Counted from the first letter of the stretch, positions 2,301 to 28,726 are shown. The stretch: 64,000 nt of DNA from Candidatus Aminicenantes bacterium (GCA_034679465.1 JAXDAV010000010.1:1963-65962); one strand, 5' to 3'. Notes: generated by a model from the letters alone, not told the origin. Program-made: numbers and translations.

Positions 2301-2365
2301 GTCTCCCAGTTTAGCGGCCCACGCAGGTTATTTCAAGACAAGGGACACATAAGAACGGGGACAGG

Positions 2366-2929: not shown

Positions 2930-2966
2930 CGCGCCGATTCTATGGTTCCCCGTACGGCTTGTCAAC

Positions 2967-11919: not shown

Positions 11920-13773
11920 ATGCCTAGCCGCAGACACGGTCGTCGGGGGAAGCATCTGGTCTTCGGGGCCCTGGCCGCCCTGGCCTTGGCTCTCCTGGTC
12001 CGCCTCGCCCCGGCCGCCGAGATCCCCTTCGAATGGACGGGCGTCGACCGCGTCGTGGCCGTCGCCGACGTTCACGGCGACTATGAGCGGTTCGTCTACA
12101 TCCTCGCCCACCCCCAGGTGGGGCTCATCGACAACGACCTCCGCTGGATCGGCGGCCGGGCCCATCTCGTCCAGCTCGGCGACGTCGCGGACCGGGGCCC
12201 CCACGCCCGCCGGATCTTCGAGATGCTCATGCGCCTCGAGAAGGAGGCCGCGGCCGCCGGCGGGATGGTCCACGTGTTGCTCGGGAACCACGAGGAGATG
12301 AACATCACCGGGATCGCCCTGGACTACCCGGGCTACGTCCTCCCCGAGCAGTTCGTGTCTTTTCTGCCCGAGGACTTCCGGAGGGAGAAGGAGTTCGAGT
12401 ACGTCAGGTCGCTCCCGGCCGGGGACCGGAAGAGAGCCGAGGCCGAAGGCCTGGACATCTTCGCCGATTTCGGGTTGCACAATTTCTGGCGGAAGGTCAT
12501 CGAGGTCAAGGATCCCGACGCCCGCCGGGCCTACGTCCTGGGCTTCAACGAGGCCGTCGGCGACTGGCTCGTCCGGAAGAACGCCATCATCAGGATCAAC
12601 GGGGTCATCTATGTCCACGGCGGCGTCGGCGAAGGCCTCTCCCGATGGCCGCTGGGCGAGATCAACGCCGTCATGCGGGCCGAGCTCGAGTACTTCCAGG
12701 GCGTCGTGCGCGACCCGAAGCGGGCGTCCCAGGACTTCAAGCCGAGGCTCGTCTACGACCCCGAAAGCCCGCTCTGGTCCCGCGGCCTGGCCGAGAGCGG
12801 CCAGGCGACCCAGGCCGACGTCGACAGGATCCTGGCCAATCTGGGGGCCAAGGCCATGGTCGTCGGCCACAGCTTCTTCAGCTATCGGGGCGGCCGGAGC
12901 CAGGTCGTCTCGAAGGACCACGTGGCCCGCTTCGAGGACAAGGTCTGGGTCATGGACACGGGCATCTCCGGGAGCTACGGCGGCGTCCCGTCGGCCCTCA
13001 TCTACGAGAACGGCGGGTTTCGGCTCTGGGGCGAGAGCGAGGAGGTCGCGGCCCAGAGCGGCATCAGGCCGCCCCCCCTCAAACCGCTGACGCGCCGGGA
13101 GATGGAAACGTTCCTCCGCACGGCCTCGATCACCGGCCGCGGTCCCGGGCCGCCCGGGCGGACCGACGCCTGGCTCCTGACCATGGCCTCGGGGGACGTC
13201 GTCATCCCGGCCCTCTTCAAGTACATCGACCGCCGGCGGCCCGAGCCGCTTGCCGACAGCTACCGCTACGAGCTCGCCGCCTACGCCCTCAGCAAGTACC
13301 TCGACGTCGGCTTCGTCCCGCCGATCGTCGAACGGACCGTCGAGGGCGTCCCGGGGGCGGTCCAGGTCTTCGTCACCGACGCCATGTCGGAGGCGGAGCG
13401 CAAGGACAAGAGAGCCGAGCCGCCCGATCCCGGGGAATTCGACCGGGCCATGGCCGACCTCCTGGTCTTCCTGGGCCTGGCCTACGACGACTGCCACCGC
13501 GACGCGGACACCCTGATCAGCCTGGACACGGGCCGGGTCTACCGGGTCGATTTTTCCGAGGCCTTCGCGCCGGCGAAGGGCCTCCCCGCCCGCTGCCCCA
13601 TCCTCCGGTGCTCGAGCCTGCTCTACCGCAAGCTCCAGGGGTGGAACGACCGGACCGTCGCCGATTACGTGGGCCGGTACCTCAATCGGGAGGAGACCGC
13701 CGCGCTCAACGCGCGCCGGCGGGCGATCGTCCGGGCGATCAAGATCGCGGGGGAGAGGAACGTCCTGTTTTGA
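11920..13773 (+). CDS. exported PPP/calcineurin-like metallophosphatase fused to a divergent PI3/PI4-kinase-like domain
   Basis: The real start is ATG 11920, inside the 1121-aa track ORF. Signal peptide HLVFGALAALALALLVRLAPAAE. Phosphatase motifs ADVHGD, GDVADRG, GNHE, VHGG, VVGHS. The C-terminal ~230 aa are paralogous to the next two small proteins (IPALFKY, YELAAYALSKYLDVGFVPP, DDCHRDADTLI, RVDFSEAF, end NVLF). Confidence 0.75.
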   Translation: MPSRRHGRRGKHLVFGALAALALALLVRLAPAAEIPFEWTGVDRVVAVADVHGDYERFVYILAHPQVGLIDNDLRWIGGRAHLVQLGDVADRGPHARRIFEMLMRLEKEAAAAGGMVHVLLGNHEEMNITGIALDYPGYVLPEQFVSFLPEDFRREKEFEYVRSLPAGDRKRAEAEGLDIFADFGLHNFWRKVIEVKDPDARRAYVLGFNEAVGDWLVRKNAIIRINGVIYVHGGVGEGLSRWPLGEINAVMRAELEYFQGVVRDPKRASQDFKPRLVYDPESPLWSRGLAESGQATQADVDRILANLGAKAMVVGHSFFSYRGGRSQVVSKDHVARFEDKVWVMDTGISGSYGGVPSALIYENGGFRLWGESEEVAAQSGIRPPPLKPLTRREMETFLRTASITGRGPGPPGRTDAWLLTMASGDVVIPALFKYIDRRRPEPLADSYRYELAAYALSKYLDVGFVPPIVERTVEGVPGAVQVFVTDAMSEAERKDKRAEPPDPGEFDRAMADLLVFLGLAYDDCHRDADTLISLDTGRVYRVDFSEAFAPAKGLPARCPILRCSSLLYRKLQGWNDRTVADYVGRYLNREETAALNARRRAIVRAIKIAGERNVLF

Positions 13774-13799
13774 CGGCTGACGCGGGAAGGAGGGAGGCG

Positions 13800-15257
13800 A
13801 TGTCCAGACCGTCGGACGACCCGGCCGCCCTCCCGGGCGCGGCCCGCTATAATCTGGGCTACAGGTTCCTGCGGCTGTTCGCCGACATCCGGCCCGGAGA
13901 GGCGTCCAAGGCCCTGCTGCTGGCCCTGAACATCTTCCTCCTCCTCCTGGCCTATTACATCCTCAAGCCCCTGCGCGAGTCCCTGCTCCTCGTCGACAAG
14001 AGCTCCCCCGTCATCAAGAGCATGCTCGGCGGCGCCCAGGCCGTCCTGTTCGTCTTCGTCATCAAGGGCTTCAGCCGCCTGGCCTCCAAGGTCCCCCGCC
14101 ACACCCTGATCACCTGGACAACGTCCTTCTTCATCTCCAACCTGGTCGTGTTCTATGTCCTCCACGCCGGCGGCCTGGCCGTCAAGCCGATGGGCATCCT
14201 GTTCTTCATCTGGGTCGGGATCTTCAACTATTTCGTCATCGCCCAGTTCTGGGGCTTCGCCAACGACCTCTATGCCGACGAGGCCGGCAAGCGGACCTTC
14301 CCGCTCGTCGCCCTCGGCGCGACCCTGGGGGGCCTCATCGCCACCCTGCCGTTCATGAAGCGGCTCCGGGACGTCCTCGGCGGCCGTTGGGAATTCAAGC
14401 TCATGCTCATCGCGGGCCTCGTGCTCGCCCTCTGCATCGTCCTGGCCCGCCTCATCCACCGCCGCGACGTCCGCAAGACCCGCCTGGACCGGGAGAACGG
14501 CGTGGCCGGCGCCGAGGAGAAGGCCAAGGTCCAGGAACAGCCGCTCGAGGCCAGCGGCGGCTTCAGGCTCGTCTTCAAGAGCCGCTATCTCTTCCTCATC
14601 GCGCTCATGATCGGTCTCTACAATTTCGTCAACGCGACCGGGGAGTTCATCATCTCCACGGTCACGGTCGATCATTCGATCGAGGCCGCGGACACGGCGG
14701 CGGCCGCGCCGGCGGCCGGACAGAGCGAAGCGGACGCCCCGCTCCGGCAAACGGAGAGCAAGGCCATCCACAACGCCTTCATGGACTATCAGCTCCTGAC
14801 CAATCTGATCGCCCTCGTCATCCAGCTCCTCCTCGTCTCGAGGATCTTCAAGTGGGTCGGGGTCGGGGGGGCGCTCCTCTTCCTGCCCATCCTGGCCCTC
14901 GGCGGCTACGCGCTCATCTCGTTCGGGGCGACCGTCGTCCTGGTCCGCTGGGTCAAGGCCCTGGAGAACGGCACGGACTACTCCCTCCAGAACACGACCA
15001 AGGCGGCGCTGTTCCTGGTCACCCGGCGCGAGGAAAAGTACAAAGCCAAGGCGGCCATCGACACGTTCTTCGTCCGCGGCGGGGACACGCTCTCGGCCCT
15101 GGCCGTGCTCGTCGGGACGCAGATGCTGGGGCTCCGGATCGAGCGCTACGCGATCCTCAATGTCGCCGCGGTCGCCCTCCTTCTCGTCATCTGCGTCAGG
15201 ATCATCGCCGCCTACAAGAGGAGGAAGGAGCGGATGGACCGGGACGAAGGTCTATGA
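13800..15257 (+). CDS. TLC/Npt-like nucleotide (ATP/ADP translocase family) carrier
   Basis: ATG 13800 lies after GGAAGGAGGGAGG. 485 aa and polytopic. The N-terminal LLLALNIFLLLLAYYILKPLRESLLL matches the conserved first helix of TLC-type carriers. The 5' part of the 870-aa track ORF is an out-of-context extension. Confidence 0.65.
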   Translation: MSRPSDDPAALPGAARYNLGYRFLRLFADIRPGEASKALLLALNIFLLLLAYYILKPLRESLLLVDKSSPVIKSMLGGAQAVLFVFVIKGFSRLASKVPRHTLITWTTSFFISNLVVFYVLHAGGLAVKPMGILFFIWVGIFNYFVIAQFWGFANDLYADEAGKRTFPLVALGATLGGLIATLPFMKRLRDVLGGRWEFKLMLIAGLVLALCIVLARLIHRRDVRKTRLDRENGVAGAEEKAKVQEQPLEASGGFRLVFKSRYLFLIALMIGLYNFVNATGEFIISTVTVDHSIEAADTAAAAPAAGQSEADAPLRQTESKAIHNAFMDYQLLTNLIALVIQLLLVSRIFKWVGVGGALLFLPILALGGYALISFGATVVLVRWVKALENGTDYSLQNTTKAALFLVTRREEKYKAKAAIDTFFVRGGDTLSALAVLVGTQMLGLRIERYAILNVAAVALLLVICVRIIAAYKRRKERMDRDEGL

Positions 15258-15294
15258 TTCGGCCGGGCCGTTGGCCTTGAGGGGAGGACCACCC

Positions 15295-16131
15295 ATGAGA
15301 CGCATCCTGGCCTTCGTTGTCTCGGCCTTGGCTTTGGGGGCCGCGCCGCCCGCCGGGCTGGCCCAGTTCCTGCCCGAGGAGATCGCCCTGAGGCCGGCCC
15401 TGGAGGAGTTCCTCCTGACGGCCGAGATCGTCCGCTTCGAGGAGATCGGCGAGGGGGTGACCAAGCCCTACAAGCTCTTCCTCCGGAAGGACGGGGTCGA
15501 GCGCCCGGCCGCCTGGAAGGACCCGAAGGGCCTGCAGGGCGGGTTCCTCGAGGGCTGGCAGTACGAGATCGCCGCCTATCGCCTCGACAAGCTCATCGGC
15601 CTGAACATGGTCCCCCCGGCCGTCGAGCGCGAATTCCGGGGCAAGCCGGGGGCCCTCGTCCTCTGGGCCGAGTGCGAATACAGCCTGCTCAAGGTCATGG
15701 AGCGGGGCATCGAGATCCCCGAAGAGGCCGGGGACCGGACCGACAAGATGAAGTACCTGACCCGGGCCTGGGACAGCCTCATCGCCAACGAGGACCGGAC
15801 CCAGCAGAACGTCCTCTACACCGGGGACTGGCGGACGATCCTCATCGACCATTCCCGGGCCTTCCGCTGCGGCGGCAAGTTCTCCGAGAAGCTGATGTTC
15901 GGCCGCAACGGCATCCAGAAGACCGCCCAGGGGGCCCCGCTCGCCTTCCGCCGCCTGCCGCGCGGATTCGTCGAGAGGATCAGGGCCCTGACCGTCGGGA
16001 GCGTCCGCAAGGCCGTGGGCCAGACCCTCACCGACCGAGAGATCAAGGCCGTCATCGTCCGCCGCGACCTCCTGCTCAAGGAGATCGGCCGGATGATCGA
16101 AGAGCAGGGCGAAGAGGCGGTGCTCTATTGA
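15295..16131 (+). CDS. exported PI3/PI4-kinase-like (protein-kinase-like fold) domain protein
   Basis: Signal peptide MRRILAFVVSALALGAAPPAGLAQ. Motifs AAWKD (candidate Lys), YEIAAYRLDKLIGLNMVPP, IANEDRTQQNVL and ILIDHSRAF. It ends in AVLY. Confidence 0.6.
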   Translation: MRRILAFVVSALALGAAPPAGLAQFLPEEIALRPALEEFLLTAEIVRFEEIGEGVTKPYKLFLRKDGVERPAAWKDPKGLQGGFLEGWQYEIAAYRLDKLIGLNMVPPAVEREFRGKPGALVLWAECEYSLLKVMERGIEIPEEAGDRTDKMKYLTRAWDSLIANEDRTQQNVLYTGDWRTILIDHSRAFRCGGKFSEKLMFGRNGIQKTAQGAPLAFRRLPRGFVERIRALTVGSVRKAVGQTLTDREIKAVIVRRDLLLKEIGRMIEEQGEEAVLY

Positions 16132-16139
16132 AGGCCAAG

Positions 16140-17030
16140 ATGAAGGCGAAGACGGGAGCGGCGCTGGCGGTCCTCGCCGCGCTCCTGCCGCTCGGCGCCC
16201 TCCTTCTGGCCTGCGTCGACGCCGGCGGCCCCGCGGCCGGCGGCCCGGACGGACCGCCTCCCCTGCAGTTCCTCCCCGAGGAGATCGGGCGGCGGGCCGA
16301 GTGGGAGGAGTTCCTGTCCAAGGCCGAGATCCTCGAAAGAGAGAGCAGGCAGATCAGGGGGTCCGAGGCCGTGACCTCGCCCTGGGTCCTCATGCTCGAG
16401 CTCGGCGGGGTCAGGCACAGGGCCCTCTGGAAGAACGCGCAGGGCCGCATGGGCGGCTACTGGGAAGGCTGGGCCTACGAGGTGGCCGCCTACCGCCTCG
16501 ACAAGCACCTCGGGCTGGGCATGGTCCCCCCCACCGTCGAGCGCCGCTTCCGCGGCGACCGGGGGTCGTGCCAGTACTGGGTCGACGACACGATGTCGCT
16601 CAAGGACAAGGAGGCCAAGCGGATCAAGACGCCTCCGGCCAAGGTCCCGGGCTGGAACCGGGCGACCTACAAACAGCGGTTCTTCGACAACCTCATCGCC
16701 AACGAGGACCGGCACTCGAACCAGGTCCTGATCACCCAGGACTGGCGGATGATCCTCATCGATCACTCCCGGTCCTTCCGGACGGCGGGCAAGTTCGTCC
16801 GCGGCCTCATCTTCTCGGCCAAGAGCCCCGCGGGGCCGATGCTCATGAGCGAGCTGCCGCGCCCGCTCGTCGAGAAGCTCCGGGCCCTGGACGCCGCCGC
16901 GCTCAGGTCCGCGGTCGGCGAGTACCTCACCGGCGAGGAGATCGGCGCCGTCCTCGTCCGGCGGGAGCTCATCCTGGCGGAGATCGATCGGCTGGTGAGG
17001 GCCAACGGGGAGGACAAGGTCCTCTACTGA
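16140..17030 (+). CDS. PI3/PI4-kinase-like domain lipoprotein (paralog of 15295..16131)
   Basis: Lipoprotein signal MKAKTGAALAVLAALLPLGALLLAC. Motifs ALWKN, YEVAAYRLDKHLGLGMVPP, IANEDRHSNQVL and ILIDHSRSF. It ends in KVLY. Confidence 0.6.
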   Translation: MKAKTGAALAVLAALLPLGALLLACVDAGGPAAGGPDGPPPLQFLPEEIGRRAEWEEFLSKAEILERESRQIRGSEAVTSPWVLMLELGGVRHRALWKNAQGRMGGYWEGWAYEVAAYRLDKHLGLGMVPPTVERRFRGDRGSCQYWVDDTMSLKDKEAKRIKTPPAKVPGWNRATYKQRFFDNLIANEDRHSNQVLITQDWRMILIDHSRSFRTAGKFVRGLIFSAKSPAGPMLMSELPRPLVEKLRALDAAALRSAVGEYLTGEEIGAVLVRRELILAEIDRLVRANGEDKVLY

Positions 17031-17031
17031 T

Positions 17032-17049
17032 CAGCCCGGGCTATTCATA
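17032..17049. repeat. 18-nt fragment identical to the core of repeat element A1
   Basis: CAGCCCGGGCTATTCATA at 17032-17049 is identical to 36305-36322. It spans the convergent gap and the last 3 codons plus stop of the RsbW-like gene. Confidence 0.7.
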
Positions 17050-17478
17050 GGACGTGAGGGCAAGGTCCTTGCGGACCGTCAGGACGTTTTGCCCGTCCGT
17101 CCGCCGGTAGGTCAGCCCGTCCATCAGGGTCTTGTAGAAATAGACGCCCAGGCCGCCGGGGGTGCCGCGGCGCCGCTGGACCGTCAGGTCGGGGTCTTTT
17201 GTCCGGACCGGATCGAAGGGGACGCCCCGGTCCCGGACCTCGATGAAGAGCGATTCCCCGCTCCGCCAGATCCGCACGGCCATGTCGCCCGGCCGGCCCT
17301 GGGGATAGGCGTAGCGGACGATGTTGACGCAGATCTCGTGGAGGGCCAGCTCGATCTTGAACCGGTCCTGCTCGTCGAAGGGCAGGCCGGCGATGGCCTC
17401 CCGCAGGAAGCCCCGGAGGCGGTCGATCTCCTCGAGCCGGGCCGGGACGCGGAGCTCCTTGACCTCCGGCTCGCTCAC
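17041..17478 (-). CDS. RsbW/SpoIIAB-like anti-sigma regulatory kinase (HATPase_c)
   Basis: 145 aa. ELALHEICVNIVRYAY (N-box region), FIEVRDRGVPFD (G1) and GGLGVYFYKTLMD (G2). Confidence 0.8.
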   Translation of the reverse strand: MSEPEVKELRVPARLEEIDRLRGFLREAIAGLPFDEQDRFKIELALHEICVNIVRYAYPQGRPGDMAVRIWRSGESLFIEVRDRGVPFDPVRTKDPDLTVQRRRGTPGGLGVYFYKTLMDGLTYRRTDGQNVLTVRKDLALTSYE

Positions 17479-17500
17479 GCTCGTCCCCTGTCCCCGGCCC

Positions 17501-19177
17501 TCAAGGGTTCCGCTTGACGATGACCAGGGTCATGTCGTCGCCGGCCTCGGAGCAGCCGCTGAAGGCGAGGACGTCCTCGAAGATCCGGTCCATGATGGCC
17601 CGGGCCGGCAGGCCGCGGAGCTCCCGGACTTTGTCCCCCAGGCGCCCGTCGCCGTACTCCTCGCTCTCGCCCCTGCGGCTCTCGACGATCCCGTCGGTGT
17701 AGAAGCAGACGATGTCTCCGGGGCGGAGGGCGACGGTCCGCCGGCCGTAGGCCTGGTCCGGGAGCATCCCCAGGCAGAGCCCGGTGCTCTCGAGGGCCTG
17801 GACCCGGCCCTGGGCCCCGACCAGCAGGGGCGGATTGTGACCGGCGTTGACGAAGGTCGCCTCGTCCCTGCTCCGGTCGATGATGGCCAGGAAAAAGGAG
17901 ATGAAGAGGTGGCTGTCCGAGCTGACATGGACGAAGTCGTTGAGCTTGGCCGCGAGCTCGCCGAGATCGACGGCGCCCGGGAACCTCTCGTGCAGGGCCC
18001 CGCGCAGCGAGGCCATGAGCAGGGAGGCGCTGACCCCGACGCCCGAGACGTCGGCGACGACGACGGCCAGCCGGTCCTTGTCGATGGGGATATAATCGTA
18101 GTAGTCCCCGCCGACGCGCCGGCAGGCCCGGGCGCTGCCGCTGATCTCGTAGGGGGCGAAATCCGGTTCGGCGCGGGGCAGGAAGTTCTTCTGGATCTGC
18201 ACGGCCAGGGCCATCTCGCGCTCGTACTGGAGGGCCTTGATGGACTCGTCGATGAGCCGGGCGTTCTCGATCTTGACGGCGGCCAGGTTGGCCAGGAGCG
18301 TCAGCAGCCGCAGGTCGTCCTCGCCGAATTGCTCCAGGAGCGAGACCCGGTCGCAGTAGACGAGGCCGATGATGTCCTGGTTGTTCCAGAGCGGGACGCA
18401 CATGGCCGAGTGGATCTGGGCCTGGACGACGCTCGCCTGGCCCCGGAGCCCCTCCTCGGCCTGGATGTCGGAGATGAGGATGGCCGAGTTCCGTTCCAGG
18501 GCCTCGCGGACGATCGTCTGGCTGACGAAGATGCTCTGGGTCCGCAGGGCCGCGTTCTGGACGCGGACGACCTTGGGCTCGAGGGCCTGGGTGGACTCGT
18601 TCTTGAGCATCAGGACGCCCCGGTCCATGGGCAGGTTCTGGATGAGCACGTCCATGATGTGGTCGAGCAGCTTCTCCAGCGGCATGTGATAGATGAGGGC
18701 CTGGCTGACCGCCCCCATGACCGCCATGATCTTCTGGTCCTGCCTCAGCCGCTCCATGTCGACCCCGCCCGCGGGGGTCTTCAGGATGCCCGTGGCCGGG
18801 GGCTTCTTGAGGATGTCCTTGACCTGGATGATCGTGTTGGAGCTGTGGGTGAAGGTCGTCCCCTCGACGGTCTCGACGGAGGGCTGGAAGTCCTTGTCGA
18901 AATAGAACCGCGTCGAGCCGACGAGGACCTCGTCGCCGCGGGCCAGGTCGATCTCGCCGCTGACGCGGCGGCCGTTGGCGAAGGTGCCGTTCTTGCTGCC
19001 CTGGTCGACCAGGGCGTAGCCCCGGTCGGTCGGGACGATGATGGCATGACAGCCCGAGCTGAACTGGTCGGACAGGACGATGTCGTTGGTCGAGGCCCGG
19101 CCGATCCGGACCGGGTCGCGGCCGAGGGGATAGGTCGAGGGCTCGCCCGATTTCGGATAGATATACAGGATGGCCAT
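17501..19177 (-). CDS. FHA-GAF-PP2C (SpoIIE/RsbU-type) phosphatase
   Basis: 558 aa. N-terminal FHA (RIGRASTNDIVLSD..SSGCHAII..GSKNGTFANG). Central GAF-like region. C-terminal SpoIIE motifs GGDYYDY and VADVSGVGVSASLLMA. Confidence 0.85.
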   Translation of the reverse strand: MAILYIYPKSGEPSTYPLGRDPVRIGRASTNDIVLSDQFSSGCHAIIVPTDRGYALVDQGSKNGTFANGRRVSGEIDLARGDEVLVGSTRFYFDKDFQPSVETVEGTTFTHSSNTIIQVKDILKKPPATGILKTPAGGVDMERLRQDQKIMAVMGAVSQALIYHMPLEKLLDHIMDVLIQNLPMDRGVLMLKNESTQALEPKVVRVQNAALRTQSIFVSQTIVREALERNSAILISDIQAEEGLRGQASVVQAQIHSAMCVPLWNNQDIIGLVYCDRVSLLEQFGEDDLRLLTLLANLAAVKIENARLIDESIKALQYEREMALAVQIQKNFLPRAEPDFAPYEISGSARACRRVGGDYYDYIPIDKDRLAVVVADVSGVGVSASLLMASLRGALHERFPGAVDLGELAAKLNDFVHVSSDSHLFISFFLAIIDRSRDEATFVNAGHNPPLLVGAQGRVQALESTGLCLGMLPDQAYGRRTVALRPGDIVCFYTDGIVESRRGESEEYGDGRLGDKVRELRGLPARAIMDRIFEDVLAFSGCSEAGDDMTLVIVKRNP

Positions 19178-19215
19178 GGGCGATTCCTCTGCCTCATTCT
19201 AAAGGAGTTGAAGGG

Positions 19216-21765
19216 TCATTTCAACCTCAGGGCCCGCTTCAGCCGGAGGACCCGTTCGCCGTCCGGCAGGTCCTCGATGAGGGGGAAGAGAAGCTCCTTG
19301 TCCTCCCTGTCGAGGAGGTTGTCGAGGTGCTCGAGGGCGTAGTCGACCGACTTGGGCGTCCCCTGGAGGATGTGCTGGTAATCGTTGATGATGTCCTCCC
19401 GGGGATAGAGGAGCGTCAGCAGGTCGAAGACGCGGCGGAGCCGGATGATGAGCGCCGCCCGGGCCTCGTCCGGCGGGCCGGGCGGGCCGAGGACGGCGTC
19501 GCAGGCCTTCCGGATCAGGAAGCGGAGCTCGGGCCGGAGGTCGCGCTCGCGGAACCGGACCCGGGCGCGCTCCGCCCGGATCTTGTAGAGCGCGTCGATG
19601 AGGGCCTGCTCCATGTCCTCGCGCCGGCGGGCCAGCTCGGCGACCAGGATGTCGGCGGCCTTCTGAGACCCGATCCGGGCCAGGACCTCCGGGACGGCCC
19701 GGCGCACCTCCAGGGGCTCGTCCGCCGAGCGGAGCAGCGGGGCGAGGCGGCCCACGATCTCGGGGCCGTAGGCCGCCAGGGCCGTTTGGGCCTCGACGAT
19801 CGTCATGGGGTTGGCCAGGTGCCGCAGGATGATCGGCACGTGCTCGGGCCGCCGGTGGACGGAGGCGCCGTTCAGGGCGTACAGGACGACCTCGACCGAG
19901 GCGTCCTGGAGGAGCCGGGCCAGGGCGTCCATCGTCGGGGGACTCGGGGCCATCCGGCAGATGCTGTTGGCGGCCTCGATCCGCTCGACCTCGGAGGGCG
20001 AGTCGATGATCCGGCCGAGGCTCTCGTCCATGATCTTCTGGTAGGCGGGCAGGAGATAGATGAGGTCGATCTCCTTCTGGAACTCGGCGTCGGTGATGGT
20101 CTCCTCGAGGCCCGGATAGAGGCCGCCCGCGGCGCCGACGTCGAACAGGGCGTCCATGGCCCGGGCCTTGAGCTCGTTGCGCTTGATCCCCAACAGCTCC
20201 TGGAGCTCGGGGGTCAGGTTCTTCGACCGGACCAGGTTGAAGAGGTTCATGTAGTAGAGGGTCGTGCTTCGCTCGCGGCTCTGGACGGCGTCGAAGACCT
20301 CGCGGACGAGCTTCTCGTCGAGGTGGGCGTCGATGACGGTCCGGCCCTCCTGCCAGATCCGGCCGAGGTCCTTCTTCAGGACGGCCGGGTATTCCCGATA
20401 GACCGACCGGGTCAGGACCAGCCAGAGGGCGAGAAAGGCGAGGACGACGAGACCCGTCTCGCGGACGACGGACAGCGGATCGAGCCGGTACTCGAACACC
20501 CTCCAGGCGTTGAGGACGAGCCAGAGGACCGCGGCCGTTCCGGTCGCGATCTTGTTGACGAGGACGTCGATGAACACCTTGGCCCGGTACTTGACGGACG
20601 CGGAGACGGGGATGTAGAGGAGCTCGCGCACGGACTGGCCGAGGGTGTTGTCGAACATCTTGTCCCCGCCGCGGGCGACCCAGGCCCAGGCCAGCAGGAG
20701 GCCGAGGGGAATGACGAACACGGTCGCCGAGACGGCCAGGAGAAAGGCCGGGGCGACGGCCATGGCCCAGCGGATGCCGTAGGACTTGAGGACGCGGCCG
20801 GTCGTGAGCAGGTGGAAGGCCGCGGAAACGGCCAGGATCACCAGGAAGAAGAGGGCGATGAACGAGGTCCGGGCCTGGCCGCTCGTGAAAAGGCTCATGA
20901 CGACCCACTTGAACTGGTAGTTGATGAGCGAGCCGGCGATGATGGCCGAGGCCACCATTGCCGCGAGCCGGCGCAGATAGCGGTCGTTCCGGACGGCCCG
21001 GAAGCTCTCCCAGGCGCCGACCTTGGCGGGCACGGCCAGGCGCTCGTCGCCGGCGACGGCGTCGGTCCGCCGCTTCTCGGCGTAGACGGCGTTGACCGCG
21101 GCGATGGCCAGGGCGAGCAGGAACGGACAGACGAGGAGGAGGTCCTCCGGCGGGATGAGCCGGGCGACGGTCATGAGGGCGGCCGCGGCCGCGCCGGCGA
21201 TGCCGCCGAAGAGCCCGCCGGTGACGAAGAGGCCGACCAGCCGCTTGGCCTCATGGGGGTCGAAGGCGTCGTTGACCGCGATCCAGAACTGGGTCACGGA
21301 CATGGCGATGAAGATGTCGGCCCAGAAGCAGAAGGCGATGACGAAGACCGGGAAATGGTCCCAGATCATCATGCGGGCCCAGAGCAGGAAGAAGACCCCC
21401 GAGGAGTCGGCGACCGGGGTTGAGTACAGGGACTTCTGGTGGACGTCGAAGATGAACCAGAAGACGAGGAGGCCGGAGATGAAGAACAGGAGCGAGGCCG
21501 TGAGGTAGGTCCGGCGGGGCAGGCGGTCGAGGAGGCGGGCGTTGACGGCCACGACGAGGCCGATGAGCAGGGCCGTGGCCAGGTCGGCGAAGGGCCACCA
21601 GCCGGGCCTGGCGCCGATCAGGAAGCTCTCTTTGACCGGCTTGACGATGTAGAAGGTGGCGGTGATCAGGAAGAAGAGCGCCGACAGGGCCAGGGCGGCC
21701 CGGGCCTCATGGCCGCGGACGTCGCCCAGGCGCTTCAGGATCCGTTCGAGCCGGCCGTCGGCCAA
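19216..21765 (-). CDS. TLC-like carrier fused to a C-terminal HEAT/ARM-like helical repeat domain
   Basis: 849 aa. The N-terminal FFLITATFYIVKPVKESFLIG helix motif resembles that of 13800..15257 and is followed by a polytopic membrane region. The last ~350 aa are soluble and alpha-helical with a repeat character (LARLLQDASVEVVLYALN.., ILRHLANP.., VPEVLARIGSQKAADILV..). Confidence 0.65.
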   Translation of the reverse strand: MADGRLERILKRLGDVRGHEARAALALSALFFLITATFYIVKPVKESFLIGARPGWWPFADLATALLIGLVVAVNARLLDRLPRRTYLTASLLFFISGLLVFWFIFDVHQKSLYSTPVADSSGVFFLLWARMMIWDHFPVFVIAFCFWADIFIAMSVTQFWIAVNDAFDPHEAKRLVGLFVTGGLFGGIAGAAAAALMTVARLIPPEDLLLVCPFLLALAIAAVNAVYAEKRRTDAVAGDERLAVPAKVGAWESFRAVRNDRYLRRLAAMVASAIIAGSLINYQFKWVVMSLFTSGQARTSFIALFFLVILAVSAAFHLLTTGRVLKSYGIRWAMAVAPAFLLAVSATVFVIPLGLLLAWAWVARGGDKMFDNTLGQSVRELLYIPVSASVKYRAKVFIDVLVNKIATGTAAVLWLVLNAWRVFEYRLDPLSVVRETGLVVLAFLALWLVLTRSVYREYPAVLKKDLGRIWQEGRTVIDAHLDEKLVREVFDAVQSRERSTTLYYMNLFNLVRSKNLTPELQELLGIKRNELKARAMDALFDVGAAGGLYPGLEETITDAEFQKEIDLIYLLPAYQKIMDESLGRIIDSPSEVERIEAANSICRMAPSPPTMDALARLLQDASVEVVLYALNGASVHRRPEHVPIILRHLANPMTIVEAQTALAAYGPEIVGRLAPLLRSADEPLEVRRAVPEVLARIGSQKAADILVAELARRREDMEQALIDALYKIRAERARVRFRERDLRPELRFLIRKACDAVLGPPGPPDEARAALIIRLRRVFDLLTLLYPREDIINDYQHILQGTPKSVDYALEHLDNLLDREDKELLFPLIEDLPDGERVLRLKRALRLK

Positions 21766-21793
21766 TCGACCCCCTCGTCAGGCCCGGGCGAGC

Positions 21794-22141
21794 TCAAGCC
21801 CTGCCGAAGCTCTCCAGGGCCCGGTCGCAGTCCTCATGGATGTCGAGGACCTTGTCCAGCATCGTGATCTTGAAGATGAGAAGGAGCTTGTCGGAGATCC
21901 GGCAGAGCTTGAGCTTGCCGCCAAGGTGCTGGGTCGAGATGTAGGAGGCCAGGATCTGGCCCACGCCGAAGCTGTCGATGAACTCCACGCCGCCGAGGTC
22001 GAGCAGCAGGTTCCTCCGCCCCCGGTCGAGCTGGGCCTCGACGAGGCTGTGGAGGGTCTCCTGGATGGTGTCGGCGCGGCGGATTTCGCCTTGGATGTCG
22101 AAGATGACGATGTTGCCCAGCTCGCGCGTCTTGATGACCAT
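21794..22141 (-). CDS. STAS-domain anti-sigma-factor antagonist (RsbV/SpoIIAA-like)
   Basis: ATG at 22141 (MVIKTRELGNIVIFDIQGEI..). LLLDLGGVEFIDSFGVGQIL contains the conserved phosphorylatable DSxG Ser context. Confidence 0.8.
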   Translation of the reverse strand: MVIKTRELGNIVIFDIQGEIRRADTIQETLHSLVEAQLDRGRRNLLLDLGGVEFIDSFGVGQILASYISTQHLGGKLKLCRISDKLLLIFKITMLDKVLDIHEDCDRALESFGRA

Positions 22142-22252
22142 GGTGTCGGCTATGTGTTTATCAGAAGGGCCGGCCAAAGTCAATTGAAGGGGTCAAACCC
22201 ACTTGACGCGAAGGACCCTCCTGGGAGAAAAGATTACTGGAAAGGAGCCGCC

Positions 22253-22444
22253 ATGCCTCTCGTCGAGATCCACCTGCTCGAAGGCCGCACGGACGAACAG
22301 AAAAAGGCCCTGCTCGCGGCGGTCACGGCCGCCGTGCGCGACTCGATCGACGCCCCGCTCGAATCGATCCGCGTCTGGGTCCAGGAGTTCAGCCCGCGGG
22401 AATACATGATCGCCGGCGTTCTCGCGGCCGATCGGAAGAAATAG
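22253..22444 (+). CDS. 4-oxalocrotonate tautomerase family enzyme
   Basis: 63 aa starting MPLVEIHLLEGRTDEQKKALL (catalytic Pro1 after Met removal). AGGAG precedes the ATG. Confidence 0.85.
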   Translation: MPLVEIHLLEGRTDEQKKALLAAVTAAVRDSIDAPLESIRVWVQEFSPREYMIAGVLAADRKK

Positions 22445-22484: not shown

Positions 22485-23978
22485 CTAGGCGGACCTTCGG
22501 GCGAAGCGCTTGCGGACGAGATAGACCGGGATCCCCAGGAGCACGATGAGCAGCCCGGGGAAGGTGTACTTCGTCTTGAAGATCAGCAGGTCGACGGCGA
22601 TCGCCGCGGCGCAGAGGATGTAGAGGGCGGGCACGACGGGATAGCCCCAGGCCTTGTACGGCCGCTCCCAATCGGGCCGCTTCTTCCGCAGGATGAAGAT
22701 CCCGGAGACGACCAGCACGAAGAAGATGAGGACGGCGAAGACGACGTAGTCCAGCAGGTCGCTGTAGGTCCCCGACAGGCAGAGGAGCGAGGCCCAGAGG
22801 CCCTGGACGACGAGGGCCGTGCCCGGGACCGACTTCCGGTTGAGCTTGCCGGTGGCGTCGAAGAACAGGCCGTCCTTGGCCATGGCGTAGTAGACCCGGG
22901 CCCCGGACAGGATCAGGCCGTTGTTGCAGCCGAAGGTCGCGATCATGATCAGGACGGCCATGATGACGGCCGCGGCCGGGCCGAAGATCATCCCGGCGGC
23001 GGCGGTGCCGACCCGGTCGAACTGGGCGAACTGGATGCCCCGGCCGACGACGTCGGCCGCTTCGGGACTGCCCTGGACGGGCAGGATGAGGATGTAGGCG
23101 AGATTGGCCAGGAAATAGAGGAAGATGACGGTCCCGGCCCCGAGGACGAGGCTCAGGGGGATGTTCTTCCGGGGGTTCTTGACCTCCCCGGCGATGTAGG
23201 TCACGCTGTACCACTCATCCGAGGCAAAGAGCGACCCGACCATGGCCGCGCCGATGGCCGCCAGGACCATCAGGCCGGACAGCGGCTCGACCGAGACGAT
23301 CTGGCCGCCGGCCATGTGGGTCCAGCTGGCCTTCCAGAAGACGGCCCAGTTGGCCTTGATGGCCGCCGCGTTGGCCCCGAAGACGAACCCGAGCAGGATG
23401 AGGCCGCCGAGGGCGACCGTCTTGGTCACGGTGAAGATCCCCTGGATCGTCTTGCCGGTCCGGACGCCGCGCGTGTTGAGCCAGGTCAGGACGACGATGC
23501 TGGCGATGGCCAGCAGCTGGGCGGCCGAGATCTTCAGGCCGAAGACCGTGGCCAGGATGTGCCGCTCGCTGAACCAGGGGACGATGAGGCCGGTGAACTT
23601 GGCGAAGGCGACGGCGACCGCGGCGATCGTCCCGGTCATGATGACCATGAAGGTCGTCCAGCCGTAGAGAAAGCCGATGAGCGGGCTGTAGGCCTCGCGG
23701 AGATAGACGTAGAGCCCGCCGGCGTGGGGCATCATGCCGGCCAGCTCGCCGTAGCTCAGGGCGCCGATGACCGTGAGGACGCCGGTGATGAGCCAGACGA
23801 GGAGCAGGAGCCCGGGCGAGCCGACCGTGCGGGCGATGTCGGCGCTGACGATGAAGATGCCCGACCCGATCATGGCCCCCATGACGATCATCATGGCGTC
23901 AAAGAGCGACATCTCGCGCTTGAAGCCGGCGGATTCCGGGGCGGAAACGGGGGCGGGGGCGGGGGCTCGATCGCTCAT
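22485..23978 (-). CDS. APC-superfamily amino acid permease
   Basis: ATG 23978 overlaps the upstream stop (ATGA). N-terminal [23 protein letters not shown]. 12-TM-type hydrophobic profile. The remainder of the 992-aa track ORF is an out-of-frame extension over the neighbouring gene. Confidence 0.85.
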
Positions 23979-25426
23979 GTCTTCCTCCTCAGCTTGCTCT
24001 TCCGGATGCCGTAGGCGAAGTAGATGACCAGGCCGAGCGCCATCCAGATGATCAGGCGCAGCCAGGTGTCCCAGGGCAGGCCTGACATCAGGTAGAGGCA
24101 GGACAGGATGCCCAGGACCGGGACGAACGGGACGAGGGGGGTCTTGAACGGCCGGGGGATGTCGGGACGGGTGTAGCGGAGGACCAGGACGCCGCCGCAG
24201 ACGATGACGAAGGCGAAGAGCGTCCCGATGCTGACCAGCTCGCCGACGATGCCCATGGGCAGGAGCGCGGCGGCGACGCCGACGACGAGGCCGGTGGCGA
24301 TCGTCGTGACGTGGGGCGTCCCGTGCTTGGGGTGGACCTTGGCCGCCGCGGCCGGCAGGAGACCGTCCTTGGCCATGGTGTAGAAGATCCGCGGCTGGCC
24401 CATCAGCTGGACCATCATGACCGACATCAGGCCGACGATGGCCGCGATCTTGACCAGCGGGGAGAGCCAGAAGAGCCGCATGGCGTCGATGGCCACGGCC
24501 ACGGGGGCCGGGACGTTGAGCTCGGTGTAGTGGACGACGCCGGTCAGGACGAGGGAGAAGGCGATGTAGATGGCCGTGCAGGCGAAGAGGGAGCCGAGGA
24601 TGCCGATGGGCATGTCCCGCTTCGGGTTCTTGGCCTCCTGGGCGGCCGTCGAAACGGCGTCGAAGCCGAGGTAGGCGAAGAACATCACCCCGGCGCCGCG
24701 CAGGATGCCGCTCAGGCCGAAGAAGCCGAACTGGCCCTGGTTCGGGGGGATGAACGGCTTCCACAGGTCGGGCTTGATGAAGAAGACCCCGGCCGCGATG
24801 AAGACGAGGATGATGCTGATCTTCAGGAAGACGATGATCGAGTTGACCGTCGCCGATTCGCGGATGCCGCGGACGAGGATGTAGGTGATGAGGGCGATGA
24901 CGAGGGCGGCCGGCAGGTTGATGACGGCGCCCGTCTTCGTCCAGACGCCGCTCTGGGGATCGAACGAATAGGGCGCGCCGGCCAGGGCCGCGGGGAAGCG
25001 AACGCCGATGCCGTTGAGGAAGCTGACGACGTAGCCCGACCAGCCGATGGCCACCGTCGTCGCGCCCAGGGAGTATTCGAGGATGAGGTCCCAGCCGATG
25101 ATCCAGGCGAAGATCTCGCCCAGGGTCGAGTAGGCGTAGGTGTAGGCGCTGCCGGCGATGGGGATGAGCGAGGCGAACTCGGCGTAGCACAGGCCGGCGA
25201 AGGCGCAGGTCAGGCCGGCCAGCATGAACGACAGGGTCACGGCCGGGCCGGCGTACTGGGCGGCGGCGTGGCCGGTGATGACGAAGATGCCGGCGCCGAC
25301 GATGGCCCCGACGCCGAGGAAGATGAGGTGCCAGGGGCCGAGGACCCGCTTGAGGCCGGAGGATTCCGACGAGGCCTCTTGCGACAGCTGCTCGAGGCTT
25401 TTCACGGCGAACAGGACGCTCTTCAT
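23975..25426 (-). CDS. APC-superfamily (cationic amino acid transporter-like) permease
   Basis: 483 aa. [12 protein letters not shown] and [20 protein letters not shown] motifs. Confidence 0.85.
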
Positions 25427-25466: not shown

Positions 25467-25498
25467 TTAATTCTTATAATTTTTTCCGCAGCCAATAG

Positions 25499-25626
25499 AA
25501 GAAGGGACCGGGTCTTCGCAAGCCTTCTCGAGGCGATCGTCCCCGGAAGGCATGTCCTTCTCGAGATGTGGGGACAGACCTGAAACTCGTATCGCCTCCG
25601 GCATTGCGAAGACCCGGTCCCTTCTT
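25499..25626. repeat. repeat family B copy 1: 23-bp perfect inverted repeats around an 82-bp core
   Basis: AAGAAGGGACCGGGTCTTCGCAA (25499-25521) is the exact reverse complement of 25604-25626. The core has its own sub-palindromes (GAGGCGAT/ATCGCCTC; CCTTCTCGAG twice). Confidence 0.75.
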
Positions 25627-25627
25627 T

Positions 25628-28600
25628 TTATGTTCGCTTCGCGCCGCCGAACCAGCTGTACAGCACCGGCAGGACCAGGAGCGTCAGGATGGTCGAGGAG
25701 ATCAGGCCGCCGACCACGACGATGGCGAGCGGCCGCTGGATCTCCGACCCGGGGCCCTGGGCGAAGAGCAGCGGCACGAGGCTGAGGACGGTGATGGTCG
25801 CCGTCATCAGCACGGGCCGCAGGCGGTTGAGACAGCCCCGGACGATCGCCTCGCCGCCCGGCATCCCCTCCTCCTGGAGCTGGCTGATGTACGAGAGGAG
25901 CACGATCCCGTTCAGGACCGCGATGCCGAAGAGAGCGATGAACCCGACGGACGCCGGCACGGACAGATAGAGCCCGGAGAGGTAGAGGGCCAGGACGCCG
26001 CCGATGAGGGCGAACGGCAGGTCGAGGAGGACCAGGAGCGACAGCCGCAGCGAGCCGAAGGTCAGGAAGAGCAGGAGCACGACGAGGCCGATCGTCGCCG
26101 GCAGGATGACCGCCAGCCGCTGCATGGCCCGCTGCTGGTTCTCGAACTGGCCGCCCCAGGTCAGGAAATAGCCCGGCGGCAGGCGAACCTCGCGGGCGAT
26201 CGCGGCCCGGGCCTCGGCGACGAAGCCGCCGAGGTCGCGGCCGCTGATATTGCACTCGACCCCGATCCGGCGCTGGCCGGCCTCGCGGCTGATCTGGCTC
26301 GGGCCCTCGATCATGGCGATCTCCGCGACCTGGCTGAGGGGCACCCGGGCCCCGCCCGGCGTCCGGACGAGGATGGCCCCGATCGCCTCGGCGGAATCCC
26401 GCCGCGCCTCCGGGTAGCGGATCTGCAGGTCGAAGTAGCGGTCGCCCTCGTAGAGCTGGGTCACCGTCTTGCCGCCGACCGCCGCTTCGACCACGGACTG
26501 GACGTCCTCGACGTTGAGGCCGAGGCGGGCGATCCGGGCCCGGTCGGGCCGGACCGTGATATAGGGCTGCCCGGCGACGCGCTCGACGTTGATGTCGGTC
26601 GCCCCCGGGATGTGCCCCAGCACGGCGGAGATCTCGTCGGCCCGGGACTTGAGCACGTCGAGGTCCTCGCCGAAGAGCTTGACGATGAGCTGGGCCCGCG
26701 TCCCGGCCACGAGCTCGTCGATGCGGCAGGCGATGGGCTGGCTGAACGAAAAGGCCATGCCCGGGAAATCCTCCAGGGCCTCCCGCATCAAGTCGGTCAG
26801 CTCCTCCCGGGAGCGGGCCGAGGTCCACTCCCGGCGCGGCTTGAGCATGCCGACATAGCCCGTCTTCTCGACGCCCCGGGCCTCCAGGGCGACCCCGGTC
26901 TGCCCCGTCTTGCCGATGATCGTCACGATCTCGGGGAACTGCATCAGGCGGGCCTCGACCTTGCGGCTCATGGCCAGGGATTCGGCGAGGGAGATGCCGG
27001 GCAGGAACTGGATGTCGGTGTCGAGCGCCCCCTCGTCCATGATGGGCATGAACTCGGTCCCGAGCCGCGGGATGAGGGCCGCCGTCCCGGCCAGCAGCAG
27101 CACGGCCGCCGCGACGACGATCGCCTTGCGCCGCAGGCCCCAGCGCAGGACCGGCAGATAGACCTTCTTCGCGCCCTCGATGAGGAGGCTCTTCTTGTCC
27201 GGCTGGGGCTTGAGGACGAAGTGGCAGAAGGCCGGGATGGCCCCGAGCGAGAGCAGGAGCGAGGCGAGCAGGGCGATGATGTGGGTGAAGGCCAGGGGCA
27301 GGAACATCTTGCCCTCGATCCCCTGCAGGGCGATGATCGGGATGAACGTCAGGGCGATGATGAGCTCGCCGAAGATCGAGGGCTTGCGGACCTCGAGGAC
27401 GGCCTTGAGGACGGTCGGCAACTTCCGGGCCCCGGCCCCGGCCTCGGAGAGATGGCGCTGGACGTTCTCCACCTGGATGATGGTCGCGTCGATGATCATG
27501 CCGATCGAGATGGCCAGCCCGCCGAGGGACATGAGATTGGCCGAGAGCCCGAACAGGCGCATCATGATGAAGGTGAACAGGGCCGAGAGAGGTAGGGCCA
27601 GGACGACGATGAAGGCCCCGCGGAAGCTGCGCAGGAAGAGGTACAGCACGAACACGACCAGCACGGAGCCGATGAGCAGGGCCTCGGTGACCGTGTGGAT
27701 GGCCCGGTTGATGATGTCCGACCGCCGGTAGTACGGCTCGATGCGCAGGCCGTGCGGCAGGACGCCCGAGGCGTTGATCTCCTCGACCCGGGCTTCGATC
27801 GCCCTCACGACCTCGCGGCCGTTGGCGCCGCGGAGCATCATGGCCACGCCCCCGACGACTTCGCCGGCGCCGTCCTTGACCGCGCCGCCCTGCCGGACGG
27901 CCGTCCCGGCCGTGACCTCGGCGACGTCCCGGACGAGGACGGGCGTCCCGCCCTGCGTCTTGAGGGCCACCGCGCCGATGTCCCCGACCGTCTGGAGGAG
28001 CCCGATGCCGCGCACGAGATACTGCTGTTCGCCTCGCTCGAGGACGTTCCCGCCGACGTTGAGGTTGTTCCGGCGCAAGGCCTCGCCGATGTCGCCCAGG
28101 GTCAGGTCGTAGGCCAGGAGCTTTTCCGGGTCCACGGTGACGTGGTACTGCTTGATGTATCCGCCGAACGAGTTGATCTCGTTGACGCCGGGGATGGACT
28201 TGAGCAGGGGCGACAGGATCCAGTCCTGGACGGTCCGCGCCTCGGTCAGGAACTCGGTCTCGTCCATCCCGGCGGGCGGCGCCCCGGCGAGGGTGTACTG
28301 GTAGATCTCGCCCATGGCCGTCGAGACGGGCCCCATGGCGATCTCCGTGCCTTCGGGGACCCGCTCCCGGGCCTCGTAGAGGCGCTCGAGGACGACCTGG
28401 CGGGCGAAATAGATGTCGACGCCGTCCTCGAAGACGACGGTGACGACCGACAGCCCCGACTTGGAGACGGACCGGACCTGTTCGAGCCGGGGCAGGCCGC
28501 GCATGGCCGTCTCGACCGGGAAGGTGACGAACCGCTCGACCTCGGGCGGCGACAGCCCGGGCGAGGTCGACAGGACCTCGACCTGGACGTTGGTCACGTC

Positions 28601-28726
28601 GGGGAACGCGTCGATGGGGATCCGCAGAAGGGACCACACGCCGAGGGCGATGAGGAGGGCCACCCCGATGAGGACGAGGGCCCGCTTCCGCAGGGCCGAT
28701 CCGATGAGGGCGTCAATGATGCCCAT
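25628..28726 (-). CDS. CusA/CzcA-family heavy-metal efflux RND permease
   Basis: ATG 28726 (MGIIDALIGSALRKRALVLIGV..). About 1030 aa. IPIDAFPDVTNVQVEVLS and a typical RND 12-TM layout. It overlaps the adaptor gene by 14 nt. Confidence 0.9.
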   Translation of the reverse strand: MGIIDALIGSALRKRALVLIGVALLIALGVWSLLRIPIDAFPDVTNVQVEVLSTSPGLSPPEVERFVTFPVETAMRGLPRLEQVRSVSKSGLSVVTVVFEDGVDIYFARQVVLERLYEARERVPEGTEIAMGPVSTAMGEIYQYTLAGAPPAGMDETEFLTEARTVQDWILSPLLKSIPGVNEINSFGGYIKQYHVTVDPEKLLAYDLTLGDIGEALRRNNLNVGGNVLERGEQQYLVRGIGLLQTVGDIGAVALKTQGGTPVLVRDVAEVTAGTAVRQGGAVKDGAGEVVGGVAMMLRGANGREVVRAIEARVEEINASGVLPHGLRIEPYYRRSDIINRAIHTVTEALLIGSVLVVFVLYLFLRSFRGAFIVVLALPLSALFTFIMMRLFGLSANLMSLGGLAISIGMIIDATIIQVENVQRHLSEAGAGARKLPTVLKAVLEVRKPSIFGELIIALTFIPIIALQGIEGKMFLPLAFTHIIALLASLLLSLGAIPAFCHFVLKPQPDKKSLLIEGAKKVYLPVLRWGLRRKAIVVAAAVLLLAGTAALIPRLGTEFMPIMDEGALDTDIQFLPGISLAESLAMSRKVEARLMQFPEIVTIIGKTGQTGVALEARGVEKTGYVGMLKPRREWTSARSREELTDLMREALEDFPGMAFSFSQPIACRIDELVAGTRAQLIVKLFGEDLDVLKSRADEISAVLGHIPGATDINVERVAGQPYITVRPDRARIARLGLNVEDVQSVVEAAVGGKTVTQLYEGDRYFDLQIRYPEARRDSAEAIGAILVRTPGGARVPLSQVAEIAMIEGPSQISREAGQRRIGVECNISGRDLGGFVAEARAAIAREVRLPPGYFLTWGGQFENQQRAMQRLAVILPATIGLVVLLLFLTFGSLRLSLLVLLDLPFALIGGVLALYLSGLYLSVPASVGFIALFGIAVLNGIVLLSYISQLQEEGMPGGEAIVRGCLNRLRPVLMTATITVLSLVPLLFAQGPGSEIQRPLAIVVVGGLISSTILTLLVLPVLYSWFGGAKRT

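Follow-up and report, generated by a model that had tools for sequence, protein, structure and literature searches.

The RsbV-RsbW-RsbU and SpoIIAA-SpoIIAB-SpoIIE modules of Bacillus are built from a STAS protein with an Asp-Ser pair, a HATPase_c_2 kinase and a SpoIIE/PPM phosphatase with N-terminal sensors. Many genomes encode partner-switching modules that lack a sigma factor, and the targets of these modules are mostly unknown. For SypA/SypE of Vibrio fischeri, BtrU/V/W of Bordetella and RbaV of Rhodobacter, the sections of a review used here (PMC8256260) describe the unphosphorylated STAS protein as the output, acting on a non-sigma or unknown target. According to the portions of Major et al. 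2017 (PMC5381601) drawn on here, NTT genes are widespread in free-living bacteria, and fusions of an N-terminal NTT/TLC domain to C-terminal HEAT repeats (NTT-HEAT and NTT-HEAT-cNBD) are widespread and uncharacterised, with a neighbouring or fused cyclic-nucleotide-binding domain suggested to regulate transport. A STAS fold also sits on other transporters, fused to SLC26/SulP or as MlaB on MlaFEDB, where it is needed for function or regulation (passages of PMC8256260 and PMC7367683). Here we analysed a stretch of 64,000 nucleotides (nt) from Candidatus Aminicenantes bacterium (JAXDAV010000010.1:1963-65962; hereafter the window), in which the genes of a partner switch surround the gene of an NTT-HEAT carrier, a specific candidate target encoded beside the switch gene.

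In our preferred reading, to which we assign a probability of roughly 0.55, the STAS protein alternates between its kinase and the HEAT tail of the carrier and so controls the carrier, and an FHA-GAF-PP2C phosphatase sets the level of free STAS protein.

A partner-switching operon around an NTT-HEAT carrier

The window lies on contig C10 of an 82-contig, 3.08-Mb assembly from an uncultured sediment bacterium, which is 95.7% complete and has ~68% G+C; its relatives are without exception metagenome-assembled Aminicenantes/Acidobacteriota genomes. Pfam searches bore out the four-gene minus-strand operon that a sequence-only reading of this DNA had placed at 17041-22141, consisting of the STAS, NTT(TLC)-HEAT, FHA-GAF-PP2C and RsbW-like kinase genes separated by gaps of 28, 38 and 22 nt. 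Alignment of orthologues favours a start of the STAS gene at the ATG at 22141 over the TTG at 22183 upstream. The products and their domains are as follows.

21794-22141, minus strand: STAS-only protein of 115 amino acids (Pfam STAS, 54.5 bits)
19216-21765, minus strand: NTT-HEAT protein of 849 amino acids, TTG start (TLC, 57.4 bits, and HEAT_2, 32.6 bits)
20371-21765, minus strand: membrane domain of NTT-HEAT, residues 1-465 (12 long helices, fold like that of NTT and the major facilitator superfamily, MFS)
19216-20370, minus strand: alpha-solenoid (HEAT-like) tail of NTT-HEAT, residues 466-849 plus stop (predicted STAS docking site)
17501-19177, minus strand: FHA-GAF-PP2C (SpoIIE-type) phosphatase of 558 amino acids (Pfam FHA, GAF and SpoIIE)
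17041-17478, minus strand: RsbW/SpoIIAB-like serine kinase of 145 amino acids, GTG start (HATPase_c_2, 94.4 bits)

All three parts of a partner-switching module are present, namely a STAS protein with the conserved serine, a small GHKL kinase with intact motifs, and a PPM/SpoIIE phosphatase. The STAS protein scores 60.7 bits against the NCBIfam anti-sigma factor antagonist model TIGR00377, above the cut-off of 53.45, and carries Asp56-Ser57 within the motif FIDSFGVG, of which D56, S57, G59 and G61 are invariant in 33/33 orthologues. We take Ser57 to be the equivalent of the SpoIIAA/RsbV phosphorylation site. The kinase covers the whole HATPase_c_2 profile, and its residues E48, N52, D83, G85, G108, G109 and G111, which presumably make up the N, G1 and G2 ATP-binding motifs, are invariant in all 25 orthologues aligned; it falls far below the equivalog models of RsbW (44.5 against a cut-off of 145) and likewise of SpoIIAB. 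The phosphatase combines an FHA domain (residues 23-87, 61 bits), a GAF domain (167-303, 59.3 bits) and a SpoIIE domain (367-556, 157.3 bits). Its translation shows the acidic motifs GGDYYD, DVSG, TDG and GDD, which we take to be the catalytic motifs of PPM enzymes, and its FHA domain has what we regard as the usual Gly-Arg, Ser-x-x-His and Asn-Gly-Thr pattern. Judged from its domains, the phosphatase is presumed to dephosphorylate the phosphorylated STAS protein (STAS-P) and to bear the input domains, of which FHA would respond to phospho-threonine and GAF to a small ligand. The genome holds 15 matches to Hanks-type kinases, potential suppliers of phospho-threonine partners.

In the NTT-HEAT protein, the TLC match spans residues 13-351 (57.4 bits, cut-off 21) and the HEAT_2 match residues 647-726 (32.6 bits, cut-off 27.7). 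An AlphaFold2 model built from an 82-sequence alignment (pLDDT 81.9, pTM 0.71) displays 12 long helices at residues 18-465, an alpha-solenoid at 474-845 and one disordered stretch at 529-558. Structural similarity search using Foldseek revealed AtNTT1 (9j3l_A, E 7e-9, TMt 0.75) and Chlamydia pneumoniae NTT1 (9j3n_A) as the best matches of the membrane domain; structures of these two proteins fill the top five places (E 7e-9 to 1.3e-7, TMt 0.63-0.75), and other MFS transporters rank behind them. At the sequence level, the similarity of the membrane part to AtNTT1 is weak (E 0.008), and PDB entries for designed alphaRep proteins, which consist of HEAT-like repeats, match the tail (E 1.4e-5). Overall, the protein has the NTT fold and Pfam membership, yet is distant from the characterised carriers. 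A positive-inside count on DSSP helices was uninformative for topology, as these helices overrun the membrane; by the established topology of MFS/NTT proteins the tail is cytoplasmic. The sequence-only reading had called two TLC-like carriers within 8 kb unusual in an apparently free-living genome. That TLC-like carriers are unusual in such genomes was not borne out: a profile search gave matches in 157/401 Acidobacteriota genomes (a tally that includes G000 and one unpublished genome, G049), in line with the consulted portions of PMC5381601.

Predicted docking of the STAS protein on the HEAT tail

The complex of full-length NTT-HEAT and STAS was predicted in three runs with three controls, using our own alignments. 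The ipSAE values were 0.66, 0.48 and 0.67 (median 0.66), compared to 0.00 for the best of the three controls; the mark applied to this score is reached by 116/157 solved complexes and 2/215 mismatched pairs, which is a rough guide since our own alignments were used. The pLDDT of the partner is at least 76. To our knowledge, there is no solved STAS-HEAT complex that the model could have memorised.

In the best run, the carrier contacts fall wholly within the tail (residues 471-495, 518-524, 624-628, 653-657, 766-777 and 797-801), and those of the STAS protein comprise residues 22-41, 55-61, 64-74 and 88-98, including D56, S57 and the invariant loop. Tail residue 492 pairs with STAS residue 57, and tail residues 487, 488 and 491 pair with STAS residue 60. 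All or nearly all of 10 divergent switch-linked sequences retain the tail residues W471, D483, V/T487, R/K488, F491, D492 and Q797; so do two lone copies of the carrier, but not 10 distant NTT-HEAT sequences. Only a subset of the interface positions of the tail is clade-invariant. As modelled, these contacts support docking of the STAS protein in the groove of the HEAT tail.

Linkage of the switch genes to the carrier gene

A protein search returned 243 relatives of NTT-HEAT. The best 120 of the 243 span 708-861 amino acids at 57-90% identity; PF03219 and PF13646 occur together in 113 of these 120, whereas the HEAT entry is missing from six and the TLC entry from one. A scan with one genome per species yielded 42 loci, labelled Aminicenantes, Acidobacteria, or mislabelled uncultured bacteria, around which the window proteins were searched by tblastn; only loci with sufficient flank were counted (for STAS, at least 400 nt of room). 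The STAS gene lies directly upstream of NTT-HEAT in 38/38 testable loci, the PP2C gene downstream in 33/34 and the kinase gene in 32/33, so that the synteny survey suggested by the sequence-only reading came out in favour of linkage within this order. Since it recurs in nearly all related loci, the four-gene arrangement is not a matter of chance. The sole exception, L013, has a breakpoint in the NTT-HEAT gene after residue 763; beyond this point the frame, on the plus strand of L013:10001-12700, runs into unrelated sequence through either a rearrangement or an assembly join.

In divergent genomes of the same order, whose carriers are 29-38% identical, a single carrier gene or a tandem pair still has the STAS gene directly upstream, usually with PP2C next, and the kinase gene is 2.6-15 kb off, beyond the neighbouring operon. 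In one genus (G315), PP2C is unlinked and located on another contig. The STAS/NTT-HEAT pair is kept despite carrier duplication, kinase relocation and PP2C unlinking; second carrier copies that stand alone (L098, L099) have no switch genes nearby. Two of these loci display further genes. In G315, the gene of the RsbW-like kinase is separated from that of the STAS protein by genes for ATP sulfurylase and APS kinase (L102:5395-7204, plus strand). In G046 (L094), a Hanks-type Ser/Thr kinase (5013-5999, minus strand) and a TPR protein (2919-4928, minus strand) follow FHA-GAF-PP2C, occupying the place that the RsbW-like kinase has in the window; this Hanks-type kinase could supply the phospho-threonine that the FHA domain reads.

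A phyletic profile was compiled over 151 genomes of the class, with the genome lists compared by eye. Orthologues of all four genes occur in the same 49/151 genomes, at cut-offs of E <= 1e-80 for the carrier, E <= 2.5e-117 for PP2C and E <= 8.2e-36 for STAS, the next best STAS match elsewhere being 1.8e-26. The PP2C match of G443 is split over two contig ends. The remaining genomes have none of the four, with the exception of G501, a fragmented assembly of 360 contigs that carries PP2C alone, at the start of a contig. Among the genomes that lack all four are 16 of the same order, including seven of the nine in one genus, the other two of which have the full set. Above all, the profile shows that wherever a STAS or kinase orthologue is retained among the 151 genomes, the carrier is retained as well. 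Five orphan paralogues of the STAS protein (L108-L112), from related genomes, have heterogeneous neighbours (peptidases, an MscS channel, a helicase, ARPP-1 and a GlmS-like gene), which are uninformative on the target.

Such linkage might reflect co-expression and inheritance only, the switch controlling some unlinked cytoplasmic process and the carrier being no more than a fellow member of its operon. The single-order clade fits this explanation, as vertical inheritance accounts for part of the synteny, and so does a physical contact that is computational, with a pose that differs between runs. However, the STAS gene remains next to the carrier gene through duplications, inversions and exchanges of the surrounding genes, even where carrier identity has fallen to 29-38%, a STAS or kinase orthologue without the carrier was met in 0/151 genomes, and the controls of the complex prediction gave 0.00. 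We therefore consider this explanation very unlikely.

The kinase rather than the STAS protein could also be the component that meets the carrier. In canonical RsbW/SpoIIAB logic the kinase binds the target and the STAS protein removes it; by analogy, the RsbW-like kinase would bind or phosphorylate the tail, and the STAS protein would only pull the kinase off. A kinase orthologue is indeed found in all 49 carrier genomes, and its gene always lies within the same supercluster. Nevertheless, linkage is loosest for the kinase gene, which is 2.6-15 kb off in several families where the STAS gene stays directly upstream, and the STAS-tail pairing is confidently predicted. In the non-sigma systems described in the available sections of PMC8256260, moreover, unphosphorylated STAS is the output. 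A direct action of the kinase on the carrier thus appears improbable.

Search for a sigma factor as the target

The genome was searched with Pfam for sigma factors, and at 95.7% assembly completeness no SigB/SigF/FliA-type (group-3) member was found. There are 17 matches to Sigma70_r2, the nearest of which, at 52849-53043 and 53440-53643 of the window, are ~31 kb away from the operon, confirming the earlier observation that no sigma factor gene lies in or beside it. Sigma70_r3 has only two matches, both in RpoD-sized frames (553 and 519 amino acids). As the genome also has one STAS match and one SpoIIE match above cut-off, the module is the only one of its kind, without an obvious sigma partner. 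The only other small HATPase_c_2 frame of the genome (30.9 bits) was considered as part of a second switch and rejected, for it belongs to a hydrogenase-like sensory cluster without STAS. This cluster, locus L114 (G000:C74:73000-82000), encodes, at 1840-5204 on the minus strand, an [FeFe]-hydrogenase-like Fe-S protein, a PHP-domain protein and two small HATPases.

These sigma matches bear on the opposite direction of signalling, in which NTT-HEAT is a sensor (a transceptor) whose tail would hold or free the STAS protein according to transport state or substrate, the output being the partner of the freed kinase, for example an RpoD-like or extracytoplasmic function (ECF) sigma factor. Synteny, co-occurrence and the predicted STAS-tail contact fit a sensor equally well, the 17 Sigma70_r2 matches offer potential targets, and one genome (G342) retains the switch with no carrier gene next to it. 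By contrast, the phosphatase already has FHA and GAF inputs, so that no additional sensor is called for, and the usual target class of RsbW/SpoIIAB, a group-3 sigma factor, was not found in the genome. In addition, no sigma domain appeared in the partly Pfam-scanned flanks of 9/12 divergent same-order loci, sigma factors not being among the tblastn/blastp queries. On balance, a sensor role of the carrier seems unlikely.

Distant NTT-HEAT homologues

The flanks of 20 distant loci, whose carriers are 24-27% identical, were represented by 181 open reading frames within 5 kb, picked with a greedy, GC3-weighted rule, which can overlook genes. STAS, SpoIIE and HATPase_c_2 domains were found at 0/20 of these loci, and the switch link is therefore confined to one order-level clade. 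The expectation that homologous carriers elsewhere would be linked to switch genes accordingly stands within this clade and fails for the distant homologues. Instead of a switch, a small protein binding cyclic nucleotide monophosphate (cNMP) is encoded directly downstream of the carrier in 7/20 distant loci, and a response regulator gene adjoins the carrier in 6/20, five of which have a histidine kinase gene as well. A metallophosphoesterase and/or SCO1664-like gene is near 11/20 distant carriers. The presence of other small regulators at distant loci fits a tail that serves as docking platform, with the regulator swapped.

A quick IQ-TREE analysis of 36 Acidobacteriota rows separated 26 order-type from 10 distant carriers with 100% SH-aLRT support. 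The tree contains two paralogue clades, a STAS-proximal one that gave rise to the lone copies and a PP2C-proximal one that holds the copy of the window; 14 database proteins in it were called switch-linked by orthology rather than by their own context.

Proposed switch on the carrier

We propose that the unphosphorylated STAS protein would bind the cytoplasmic HEAT tail on its concave side, near the helix that follows the last membrane helix, and that its binding would alter the activity of the carrier, either activating or inhibiting it. The RsbW-like kinase would bind the same face of the STAS protein and phosphorylate Ser57. We infer the effect of this phosphorylation, as well as the direction of control: because the phosphate on Ser57 would face two invariant aspartates of the tail, D483 and D492, STAS-P would be released. 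The FHA-GAF-PP2C phosphatase would then reset the STAS protein in response to a phospho-threonine protein and a small ligand. The predicted interface puts the phospho-serine in contact, and the idea is testable with few proteins. That the transporter itself is the output, reached via its tail, had been suggested by the sequence-only reading; the strict synteny, the co-occurrence in 49/151 genomes, the lack of a group-3 sigma factor and the STAS-tail model with Ser57 speak for it, and the restriction of the link to one order-level clade qualifies it.

Several observations weigh against a STAS-controlled carrier. First, the three runs agree in at least 0% of contacts, so that at least two runs place the STAS protein differently, and the position of Ser57 within the interface is taken from the best run only. 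Second, the average identity at interface positions (0.58 among close and 0.31 among divergent sequences) does not exceed that of the remaining tail (0.65 and 0.37, respectively). Third, a STAS domain fused to the carrier or to HEAT repeats was not found among 550 candidates (longer proteins retrieved with the STAS query), which is weak evidence, the single hit being a 223-residue protein with STAS only. Fourth, no carrier gene separates the neighbouring STAS and PP2C genes of G342, whose only carrier copy is on another contig, which speaks against an obligate pairing. In this genome (L107:6435-10086, plus strand), the STAS domain lies at the end of a 636-residue open frame, and the N-terminal part of that frame is without a match in Pfam. 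Fifth, the co-loss of the four genes is weaker evidence than it appears, because adjacent genes are lost together physically, in single deletions, and the kinase cut in the profile is not sharp, with 8.2e-38 for the weakest orthologue versus 1.3e-33 for the best non-orthologue. Finally, NTT-HEAT scores 45.9 bits against the NCBIfam NTP/NDP exchanger model TIGR00769, compared to a cut-off of 387.2.

Neighbouring genes and a tentative ATP valve

The operon is bounded upstream by a tautomerase gene, and the following features surround or overlap it.

22142-22252, no strand assigned: divergent intergenic region of 111 nt between the STAS and tautomerase genes (presumed operon promoter, position-based)
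19196-19224, minus strand: promoter-like site TTGAAA-17-TAGAAT, 10/12 (consensus match only; inside the 3' end of NTT-HEAT, before the PP2C start)
22253-22444, plus strand: 4-oxalocrotonate-tautomerase-family gene, 63 amino acids (Pfam Tautomerase, 57.1 bits)
22485-23978 and 23975-25426, minus strand: tandem pair of genes for amino-acid permeases of the APC family (AA_permease_2, 187 and 183 bits)

The tautomerase gene points away from the STAS gene and towards the permease genes; standing between the operon and the two permease genes, it sets the four genes apart as a unit of their own. The intergenic region 22142-22252 is presumed from its position to contain the promoter of the switch operon, and a consensus scan of it gave no promoter-like site. 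The sigma-70-like site at 19196-19224, one found compared to 0.3 expected from shuffles, could drive a separate transcript of the PP2C and kinase genes. In many related loci, both permease genes likewise lie upstream of the switch operon. Upstream of the permeases, many related loci also encode a 1056-residue protein (25467-28637, minus strand in the window), conserved at 44-69% identity and without a match in Pfam or NCBIfam.

At its 3' end, the switch operon converges on a second TLC-containing operon on the plus strand.

11920-13773, plus strand: exported metallophosphoesterase fused to an SCO1664-like domain (Pfam/NCBIfam)
13800-15257, plus strand: TLC2, a carrier without tail (Pfam TLC, 67.7 bits)
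15295-16131 and 16140-17030, plus strand: two exported SCO1664/PI3-PI4/Fam20-like proteins (Pfam/NCBIfam)

The kinase gene ends at 17041, 10 nt from the stop of the last of these genes at 17030, just as the sequence-only reading had noted. The N-termini encoded by the convergent operon resemble signal peptides, one with a lipobox-like LLLAC, as judged by eye. Its SCO1664-family (TIGR03843) proteins have no Pfam match of their own; weak matches to Fam20C and PI3_PI4_kinase come from a distant homologue (L077:11776-12705). The convergent operon (11920-17030) adjoins the switch operon in most loci, forming one conserved supercluster.

Given the ATP/ADP translocator fold and this supercluster, whose products include a second TLC carrier as well as exported phosphatase and kinase-like proteins, ATP/ADP would be the likeliest cargo of the carrier. 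Exchanged across the inner membrane, it would feed the exported enzymes, with the switch as a valve. In its full form, this extension holds that NTT-HEAT and TLC2 both exchange ATP from the cytoplasm for ADP and fuel the exported Fam20/PI3-PI4-kinase-like proteins and the phosphatase, gated by the switch module in response to cytoplasmic phospho-threonine and small-molecule signals; we put it forward tentatively and lean towards doubting it. If the carrier moves ATP to exported kinase-like enzymes, the locus would hint at regulated phosphorylation outside the cytoplasm in free-living bacteria, and the valve, if true, would parallel in bacteria the way in which eukaryotes provide the kinases of their secretory pathway with ATP.

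Comparison with known systems

A literature search, covering titles and the starts of abstracts, found no published description of a partner switch on such a carrier; if true, the tentative ATP valve would be the first post-translational partner switch on a solute carrier. Compared to the Bacillus modules, the present one has no sigma gene nearby, a carrier gene between the STAS and phosphatase genes, and a kinase below the equivalog cut-offs. The targets of SypA/SypE, BtrU/V/W and RbaV are unknown or affect expression or secretion, whereas here a candidate, the HEAT tail, is encoded beside the STAS gene; the consulted sections of PMC8256260, a review on STAS-only proteins, list non-sigma outputs with unknown targets and no carrier among them. 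The STAS domains of SLC26/SulP and MlaB are not described, in the passages of PMC8256260 and PMC7367683 used here, with a dedicated kinase-phosphatase pair, and they sit on other transporter folds without a HEAT tail. AtNTT1 and C. pneumoniae NTT1 (9j3l, 9j3n), the best structural matches of the carrier, share 17-19% identity with it and have no HEAT tail either. Closest in architecture are the NTT-HEAT proteins of PMC5381601, from which the present locus differs in the neighbouring regulator, here STAS/kinase/PP2C; the words 'STAS' and 'anti-sigma' do not occur in the text of that paper. The HEAT tail of NTT-HEAT proteins would in this way gain a concrete role, that of a docking platform whose regulator is lineage-specific, a STAS protein in this order and cNMP-binding or two-component proteins at the distant loci.

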